From Escherichia coli (GTDB taxonomy: Bacteria; Pseudomonadota; Gammaproteobacteria; Enterobacterales; Enterobacteriaceae): a stretch of DNA of 64,000 bases. A program made the position numbers and the translations under genes. Shown here in pieces: positions 23,461-23,567 of the stretch. The DNA is taken from NCBI RefSeq assembly GCF_003334385.1, contig NZ_QOWN01000009.1, one strand, 5' to 3'. Within the stretch, counting starts at the first letter, position 1; the number at the start of each line of letters is the position of its first letter. The notes beneath the pieces are model-generated. The model made no database searches, had not been told where the DNA came from, and worked only from the letters and a program-made list of their open reading frames with translations.

Positions 23461-23567
23461 GCTTCATGCCGGATGCGGCGTAAACGCCTTATCCGGCCTA
23501 CAAGATCCAAAGAAATCAGTAAATTGCAACACACATTGTAGGCCTGATAAGCGTAGCGCATCAGGCA
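23461..23567. repeat. REP/BIME cluster (two inverted REP units) between livJ and panM
   Basis: gccggatgcggcgtaaacgccttatccggcctac and gtaggcctgataagcgtagcgcatcaggc, canonical REP palindromic units. Confidence 0.9.

Follow-up and report, generated by a model that had tools for sequence, protein, structure and literature searches.

Three BIME-1 elements and, between ugpB and ugpA, an atypical inverted REP pair with one degenerate unit in a 64,000-nucleotide stretch of Escherichia coli DNA

The Escherichia coli DNA that we analyzed, called the window below, is a 64,000-nucleotide stretch of contig NZ_QOWN01000009.1 (assembly GCF_003334385.1) that carries, among other genes, livJ, panM, livKHMGF, ugpB, ugpA, glgP, yzgL and glpD. 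We took the gene map from the almost identical record NZ_CP047277 (Table 1), and by this map the REP clusters that an initial annotation had assigned to livJ/panM, livF/ugpB, ugpB/ugpA and glpD are beside the correct genes. Mismatches between the window and NZ_CP047277 are concentrated in rhsB (1578-2211), and from 61931, in the rtcR region, an ungapped comparison of the two is out of register, probably through a divergent segment or an indel. A 10-kb piece of the region around the clusters has matches, several with 100% identity, in every one of the 5426 complete E. coli genomes. To K-12 MG1655 the window is 99.96-99.97% identical and maps in reverse orientation at 3.56-3.60 Mb; over this range the sole structural difference is the IS1E element of MG1655, which the window lacks. 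In MG1655, IS1E interrupts yrhA; the corresponding window site is 37756-37767, where the alignment to K-12 breaks into two BLAST segments that share 12 nt. Window segments 22292-23412 and 24390-25516 are direct repeats with 71-72% identity that reflect the paralogy of livJ and livK, two binding-protein genes. The only match in an Rfam scan of the window, run against a database without any REP family, is the ryhB sRNA gene at 40199-40263 on the plus strand (83.1 bits).

Catalogues of the REP and BIME elements of E. coli K-12 date back to the 1980s-90s, and the four clusters described here are already known biology. Each is base-for-base identical to its MG1655 counterpart, at 3598396-3598502 (cluster 1), 3592556-3592662 (cluster 2), 3590930-3590997 (cluster 3) and 3563580-3563680 (cluster 4). 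The K-12 RefSeq annotation has no repeat_region features at these sites and hence supplies no REP numbers for them. We examined their identity, anatomy, predicted folding and position, together with their distribution in the E. coli population and across species.

Table 1. Genes, REP units, linkers and conserved flanks in the window
Feature	Position	Strand	Remarks
livJ	22305-23408	+	
Cluster 1, Y unit (1a)	23466-23501	-	GTAGGCCGGATAAGGCGTTTACGCCGCATCCGGCAT; fold of -20.9 kcal/mol, typical 2-nt internal mismatch
Cluster 1, L linker, 36 nt	23502-23537		IHF-like core AATCAGTAAATTG at 23514-23526 (+), one mismatch to WATCAANNNNTTR
Cluster 1, Z1 unit (1b)	23538-23568	+	GTAGGCCTGATAAGCGTAGCGCATCAGGCAA
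panM	23596-23979	-	
livF, last gene of livKHMGF	28526-29239	+	
Cluster 2, Z1 unit (2a)	29299-29329	-	GTAGGCCTGATAAGCGCAGCGCATCAGGCA
Cluster 2, L linker, 36 nt	29330-29365		IHF-like core ATTCAACATATTG at 29342-29354 (-)
Cluster 2, Y unit (2b)	29366-29401	+	one Z-like base (GCCTGAT, 5' arm), extra stem mismatch, -14.7 kcal/mol
ugpB	29638-30954	+	
Cluster 3, degenerate left unit (3a)	30962-30995	-	GTAG changed to CCAG; E = 3.7e-7
Cluster 3, intact right unit (3b)	31002-31032	+	GTAGGCCGGATAAGCGAAGCGCATCCGGCAC; Y-like stem (GCCGGAT), short Z1-like center
ugpA	31052-31939	+	
glgP	54605-57052	+	
yzgL	57181-57462	+	
Cluster 4, conserved left flank	57475-57504		TTAGATTTTTGACAAAGTGCGCTTTGTTCA; common to the ccmH-narP and fepA-entD copies
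Cluster 4, Y unit (4a)	57505-57540	-	variant bases (GCCAGAT and ACGTTCACGT), weakened stem, -12.6 kcal/mol
Cluster 4, L linker, 35 nt	57541-57575		IHF-like core ATTCAATATATTG at 57553-57565 (+)
Cluster 4, Z1 unit (4b)	57576-57606	+	
Cluster 4, conserved right flank	57607-57628		TTTTGTGTTTGTCATCAGTCTC; inverted repeat I3, also beside cluster 2 at 29276-29298
glpD	57668-59173	-	

The initial annotation had reported clusters of canonical REP palindromic units at 23461-23567, 29301-29407, 30966-31033 and 57506-57606. All four are present, with unit boundaries that agree to within about 5 nt, and the end given for cluster 2 (29407) lies 6 nt beyond the end of its Y unit. Together they hold eight REP units. 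A REP consensus scan of the window with GTAGGCCKGATAAG, allowing up to two mismatches, gives 8 matches where 0.57 are expected, and none of 100 shuffles reaches 8. The pattern misses the degenerate unit 3a, and one of its 8 matches, at 57316-57329 within yzgL (two mismatches), is a chance match that is absent from the eight units of the profile. The nhmmer profile that we built from the eight units recovers exactly those eight, with E-values from 1.6e-9 to 3.7e-7, and finds no further REP units in the window; the next match has an E-value of about 0.9, so no REP has been missed and the list of four clusters is complete for the window. Isolated GCCGGATGCG decamers at 5632, 41978 and 50049 are missing the other half and are chance matches. 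With 355 REP elements annotated in 4.6 Mb (PMC4550694), the window and its four clusters in 64 kb come close to the average for the genome.

A REP is defined by a 30-40 nt imperfect palindrome whose stem contains a two-base mismatch, and by a GTAG located 5' of the hairpin foot (PMC3333891). With each unit oriented GTAG-first, after Ton-Hoang et al. (PMC3333891), all eight are imperfect palindromes of 31-36 nt with an AA/GC two-base internal mismatch in the stem, and seven carry the 5' GTAG. The exception is unit 3a, which has CCAG in its place and differs from unit 3b by four further transitions, so the word canonical is right for seven of the eight units and wrong for the left unit of cluster 3. 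Judged by sequence, the same seven appear to have what TnpA-REP (RAYT) requires, namely GTAG together with the stem mismatch. All of the units lie between annotated genes, and the family is highly repeated: queries with cluster 1 and cluster 4 match at least 40 pieces per genome in thousands of genomes. By sequence, palindrome structure, GTAG, extragenic position and copy number, all eight units belong to the enterobacterial REP (palindromic unit) family. We see next to no likelihood that the palindromes are instead chance hairpins or ordinary intrinsic terminators outside this family. Their location downstream of genes is what one would expect of terminators, and nothing else points that way, whereas the motif is strongly enriched, dozens of near-identical copies exist per genome, and full-length alignment with copies at unrelated loci succeeds. 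Moreover, no unit is followed by a T-run, and a simple terminator scan finds no intrinsic terminator at any of the four clusters, which rejects the reading of the clusters as ordinary terminators.

An analysis of Y and Z orientation resolves the eight units into three Y-L-Z1 elements and one atypical pair, cluster 3. Clusters 1, 2 and 4 each consist of one Y unit, an L linker of 35-36 nt and one short Z unit in inverse orientation, and each is present as one copy per locus with no tandem amplification. The entire cluster 2 has the opposite orientation to clusters 1 and 4 (inverted repeat I1, 117 nt, 84%). Read GTAG-first, units 1b and 4b are the identical short Z, GTAGGCCTGATAAGCGTAGCGCATCAGGCA, and unit 2a differs from them by one base, C for T in the central loop. 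BIME-1 has been described as a y and a z1 unit joined by a long, well-conserved L linker that frequently contains an IHF site, and as occurring in single copy (PMC3333891). REP325 of K-12 is made of Y + Z2 pairs (bioRxiv 10.64898/2026.03.23.713779), and when read directly, its Z unit is the long form, GCCTGATGCGACGCTTGCGCGTCTTATCAGGCCTAC; since Z2 is thus the long form, the short Z of the window is Z1. Clusters 1, 2 and 4 are therefore BIME-1 (RIB/RIP) elements, RIB standing for reiterative IHF BIME and RIP for repetitive IHF-binding palindromic.

We aligned the three BIME-1 clusters with independent copies at ccmH-narP, fepA-entD and yjeI-yjeJ. The whole composite is repeated, including both outer flanks for cluster 4, one side for cluster 2 and neither for cluster 1. 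Among the three clusters and the three independent copies, the invariant columns in the otherwise variable linker are A.TCA.....TTG, which is the IHF core, and the IHF-like core has one mismatch to the consensus WATCAANNNNTTR in every copy. In MG1655 coordinates, the cores of clusters 1, 2 and 4 are at 3598437-3598449, 3592609-3592621 and 3563621-3563633. The three clusters thus resemble other BIME-1 elements in being single copies of about 100 nt, with Y + Z1, a linker of about 35 nt, an IHF-like core and a location at 3' ends, and cluster 4 further resembles the ccmH-narP and fepA-entD copies in its conserved outer flanks. They differ in that the linker of cluster 1 is diverged relative to BIME-1 and this cluster has no conserved flanks, and in that the Y units 2b and 4a carry stem-weakening substitutions.

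All three BIME-1 clusters lie at the 3' ends of transcription units, where RIB/RIP elements are said to have been described by Boccard and Prentki in 1993. Cluster 1 is between the convergent genes livJ and panM, and cluster 2 is at the end of livKHMGF and upstream of the ugpB promoter region. Cluster 4 had been placed upstream of the glpD 3' end; the site is right, but the cluster is really downstream of the glpD stop, in the spacer between the convergent genes yzgL and glpD. The gaps from stop codon to REP are 59 nt for livJ, 29 nt for panM, 61 nt for livF, 44 nt for yzgL and 63 nt for glpD. Some of these gaps contain hairpins of their own. After the livJ stop and upstream of cluster 1 is the hairpin CGGCAAC-UUUGG-GUUGCCG (23417-23436), and after the livF stop and upstream of cluster 2 is GGGAGUC-AAAA-GACUCC followed by UUUGAGA (29256-29282); these two, which the simple scan passed over, are possibly primary terminators. 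In the minus-strand RNA, the glpD stop is closely followed by a perfect 11-bp hairpin, CAGGUCAGAUU...AAUCUGGCCUG (57625-57655), situated ahead of the BIME-1 of cluster 4; it lacks a T-run, and its arms resemble the REP stem fragment GGTCAGAT.

When transcribed, the hairpins of a BIME-1 element would block 3'-to-5' exonucleases and partly terminate transcription of the flanking genes, here livJ/panM, livKHMGF and yzgL/glpD, and as DNA the element would offer an IHF-binding site. PU-BIME elements have been described both as mRNA stabilizers and transcription attenuators and as interacting with gyrase and IHF (PMC2267715). One could suppose that the BIME-1 clusters are mainly DNA elements, in other words IHF sites or weak gyrase sites that act on supercoiling, on chromosome organization or, for cluster 2, on the ugpB promoter. 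The conserved IHF-like core in the L linker, the frequency of IHF sites in BIME-1 linkers (PMC3333891), the interactions with gyrase and IHF just cited and the position of cluster 2 all favor such a role. However, transcription should reach all three clusters, located as they are at the 3' ends of their units, and a model REP had no role in chromosome compaction (bioRxiv 10.64898/2026.03.23.713779), and we consider it unlikely that the DNA role is the main one.

To describe how clusters 1, 2 and 4 vary within E. coli, we counted a genome as having the K-12 arrangement when at least 80% of a query of about 400 nt was matched. The arrangement was found in 3748 of the 5426 genomes for cluster 1, 4630 for cluster 2 and 2130 for cluster 4, and these numbers are lower bounds for the K-12 arrangement in which changes of the flanks and loss of the REP are mixed. 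In O157:H7, the sequence between livJ and panM (L008, 558-1507; equivalent to 23409-23595 of the window) holds an ataR-ataT toxin-antitoxin module, no REP and a classical intrinsic terminator, GCCCGATG...CATCGGGTTTTTTT. In some strains, such as RIVM_C036204 (L007, 7779-12001), a fimbrial operon that encodes a fimbrial protein, a chaperone and an usher lies between glgP and glpD, at the equivalent of about 57053 onward in the window, where yzgL and cluster 4 are found here. This presence/absence variability is typical of BIMEs, and it means that the clusters are dispensable in part of the species.

It also bears on the view that the four clusters are selfish or neutral insertions, dispersed by RAYT into tolerant 3'-end spacers and without a selected role at these loci, which we consider somewhat unlikely. 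Beyond the variation among genomes and the replacement of cluster 1 by ataRT and an ordinary terminator in O157:H7, this view is favored by the decay of unit 3a with loss of its GTAG, by the stem-weakening substitutions of Y units 2b and 4a, and by a report that REP loci show large variance and no general effect on mRNA half-life (bioRxiv 10.64898/2026.03.23.713779). Against it are the invariant IHF-core columns in an otherwise variable linker and, as described below, the persistence of structure between ugpB and ugpA.

Cluster 3 differs from the other clusters in its anatomy. Its two units both have a Y-like stem with a short center and stand 6 nt apart on their GTAG sides, and in the sense RNA, 3a and 3b together are predicted to form a single long hairpin (30964-31031, plus strand) of 31 pairs, 5 of them G-U. 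The fold is about -50 kcal/mol with z = -7.56, and no fold among 200 shuffles is as stable; the sense strand folds better than the antisense strand (-49.0 versus -38.3 kcal/mol). Three of the four arm differences are G-U compatible, a comparison within E. coli for which the chance probability is about 0.31. The hairpin starts 9-10 nt past the ugpB stop codon (30952-30954) and ends 8 nt ahead of the ugpA Shine-Dalgarno sequence AGGA (31039-31042), with the ugpA ATG at 31052, and cluster 3 is the only cluster within 15 nt of a stop codon. We rejected an assignment to BIME-2, as there is no Z2, there is a single pair, and the GTAG-side linker is 6 nt as opposed to 17 nt in REP325. We class cluster 3, which lies in the ugpBAECQ operon, as an inverted REP pair that is atypical and partly decayed. 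An equivalent pair is present at the equal position in E. albertii and in Pseudocitrobacter faecalis, and the left unit there keeps its CTAC/GTAG end, from which it follows that the insertion is old and the decay of 3a is derived. The window contains no RAYT gene, and because TnpA-REP binding requires the GTAG that 3a has lost, mobilization of cluster 3 from that side is probably no longer possible.

In the classical model for REPs within binding-protein-dependent transport operons, such as malE-malF and hisJ-hisQ, the hairpin protects the upstream mRNA segment and sets the ratio of binding protein to permease. These intra-operon stabilizers were reportedly characterized by Newbury, Stern, Higgins and colleagues in 1987-88. 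Cluster 3 is like them in its place between ugpB, which encodes the periplasmic binding protein, and ugpA, the first of the permease genes, and in consisting of two inverted REPs with a very stable RNA hairpin before the next ribosome-binding site. A stable hairpin between the upstream and downstream cistrons, as in the malE-malF type, is found here. It differs in that its left unit is degenerate, in that the 6-nt gap gives one long hairpin rather than two, and in that the hairpin is within 10 nt of the stop codon. REP325, a BIME-2 array between yjdM and yjdN, is likewise located between tandem genes, where it stabilizes the upstream transcript and acts as a partly Rho-dependent attenuator of the downstream gene (bioRxiv 10.64898/2026.03.23.713779). 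Unlike cluster 3, which is a single pair without Z2, REP325 is a tandem array of 12 Y and Z2 units with linkers of 11 and 17 nt. Finally, cluster 3 and each BIME share with the REPIN, a REP doublet hairpin proposed to be the unit mobilized by RAYT, two inverted REPs that can form a longer hairpin; the differences are that unit 3a is without GTAG and that there is no RAYT gene in the window.

Our preferred reading, to which we give a probability of about 0.9, is that the window holds eight K-12-identical REP copies, arranged as three BIME-1 elements and one old, decayed inverted pair whose hairpin would uncouple ugpB from the permeases. REPs are non-autonomous repeats that the single-strand transposase RAYT/TnpA-REP recognizes and probably spreads. 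For the present loci, we infer from the literature that RNA stabilization and attenuation, IHF binding and RAYT mobilization may all apply. The initial annotation had suggested that the copy between ugpB and ugpA could stabilize the upstream mRNA and affect expression of the binding protein versus the permeases. Such a role in differential expression, following the classical malE-malF type model, is plausible, and the anatomy of cluster 3 fits it, as does the structure found in this spacer across species (see below). Its hairpin most likely uncouples binding-protein from permease expression in that the ugpB segment would be shielded from 3' exonucleases and read-through into ugpA would be attenuated, while terminating ribosomes would possibly be impeded by a hairpin that starts 10 nt past the stop. 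At REP325, the upstream transcript is stabilized and transcription into the downstream gene is partly terminated, and tandem gene pairs with a REP have a median log ratio of upstream to downstream expression of 0.96, compared with -0.09 for controls (bioRxiv 10.64898/2026.03.23.713779); such genome-wide trends favor the effect as an average over loci. That preprint makes no mention of ugp, liv or glpD, and our literature search on REP in the ugp operon returned nothing relevant and no ugp transcript or stability data.

The closeness of the hairpin to the stop codon raises another explanation, that cluster 3 is mainly translational and lowers UgpB by stalling terminating ribosomes, with mRNA cleavage and tmRNA rescue. 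The distance from the ugpB stop codon to the first paired base (30964/30965) is 9-10 nt, and according to PMC12306157, which refers to Liang et al. 2015, REPs less than 16 nt from a stop codon lower upstream translation via ribosome stalling. On the other hand, transport operons usually have to supply more of the periplasmic binding protein than of the permeases, and we doubt that lowering UgpB is the main role. Since the hairpin belongs by position to the class reported to lower upstream translation, uncoupling of ugpB from the permeases need not have a positive net effect on UgpB, which could combine stabilization, attenuation and a translational penalty.

We then compared the ugpB-ugpA spacer in other species. 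The ugpA locus was taken from 80 species, and the ugpB stop and ugpA start were located in each; the spacer is at least 20 nt in 75 species, which form the folded set, and 4-12 nt in the remaining five. The median z of the spacer is -3.3, with z below -2 in 61 of the 75 species and below -3 in 42. For length-matched control pieces, the median is -0.16 inside ugpA and -0.43 inside ugpB, and in both cases z is below -2 in 3 of the 75 and below -3 in none. Spacers differ from these coding controls with p of about 1e-12 in a paired Wilcoxon test, in which the species are related and the trials are therefore not independent. The sense strand folds better in 43 species and the antisense strand in 32 (p = 0.056). 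The spacer sequences are not homologous across lineages, and the junction is filled by E. coli-type REP pairs, Citrobacter-type REPs, CCCTCTCCC/GGGAGAGGG-type elements or lineage-specific hairpins. Among 48 Enterobacterales, 11 have REP-like GTAGGCC elements of at least two kinds, 7 have CCCTCTCCC/GGGAGAGGG-type palindromic elements, 1 has both, and 29 have lineage-specific hairpins.

E. coli itself is polymorphic at this junction. The REP pair of the K-12 arrangement is present in at least 5105 of the 5426 genomes (94%), and in 318 (6%) it is replaced by a palindromic element of the CCCTCTCCC/GGGAGAGGG type of about 155 nt, which is predicted to fold with -88 kcal/mol (z = -4.7). In E. coli 23AR0303, this element occupies L004 241-395, equivalent to 30955-31051 of the window. 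Its ends carry inverted CCCTCACCCTAACCCTCTCCC...GGGAGAGGG / GGGGTGAGGGG motifs, and some of its sequence recurs at other intergenic sites without annotation, one of them in a K-12 derivative. The element resembles the BoxC family, to which it may belong. In one strain, LH10-b-1, a deletion takes the left REP unit and shortens ugpB.

Structure at the junction in 61 of the 75 species via unrelated sequences, and an alternative E. coli allele that is also a strong hairpin, argue against the view that the clusters are neutral insertions, yet insertions may simply land more often in a spacer that already contains a hairpin. The ugpB-ugpA junction may be selected for any strong hairpin after the stop codon, with unrelated palindromic repeat families swapped in, and we hold this tentatively, at a little short of even odds. 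The pattern of structured spacers fits selection for a hairpin, but it would also arise if an existing hairpin or a tolerant spacer attracted palindromic elements. If the junction is selected in this way, the two alleles segregating in E. coli would be a natural allelic series for REP function in operons. The turnover of structured repeats at this conserved junction, where a strong hairpin is retained while the sequence family changes, is the only mildly new point of the analysis and may help studies of REP function; its other useful outcome is a correct intergenic annotation of three BIME-1 elements and one atypical pair. A third ugpB-ugpA allele occurs in E. coli SCPM-O-B-8794, a GTDB representative (L015, 1401-1500), in which the right unit is as in K-12 and the REP on the left is of the GCCGGGTGG...CCTTACCCGGCCTAC type, as in Citrobacter.
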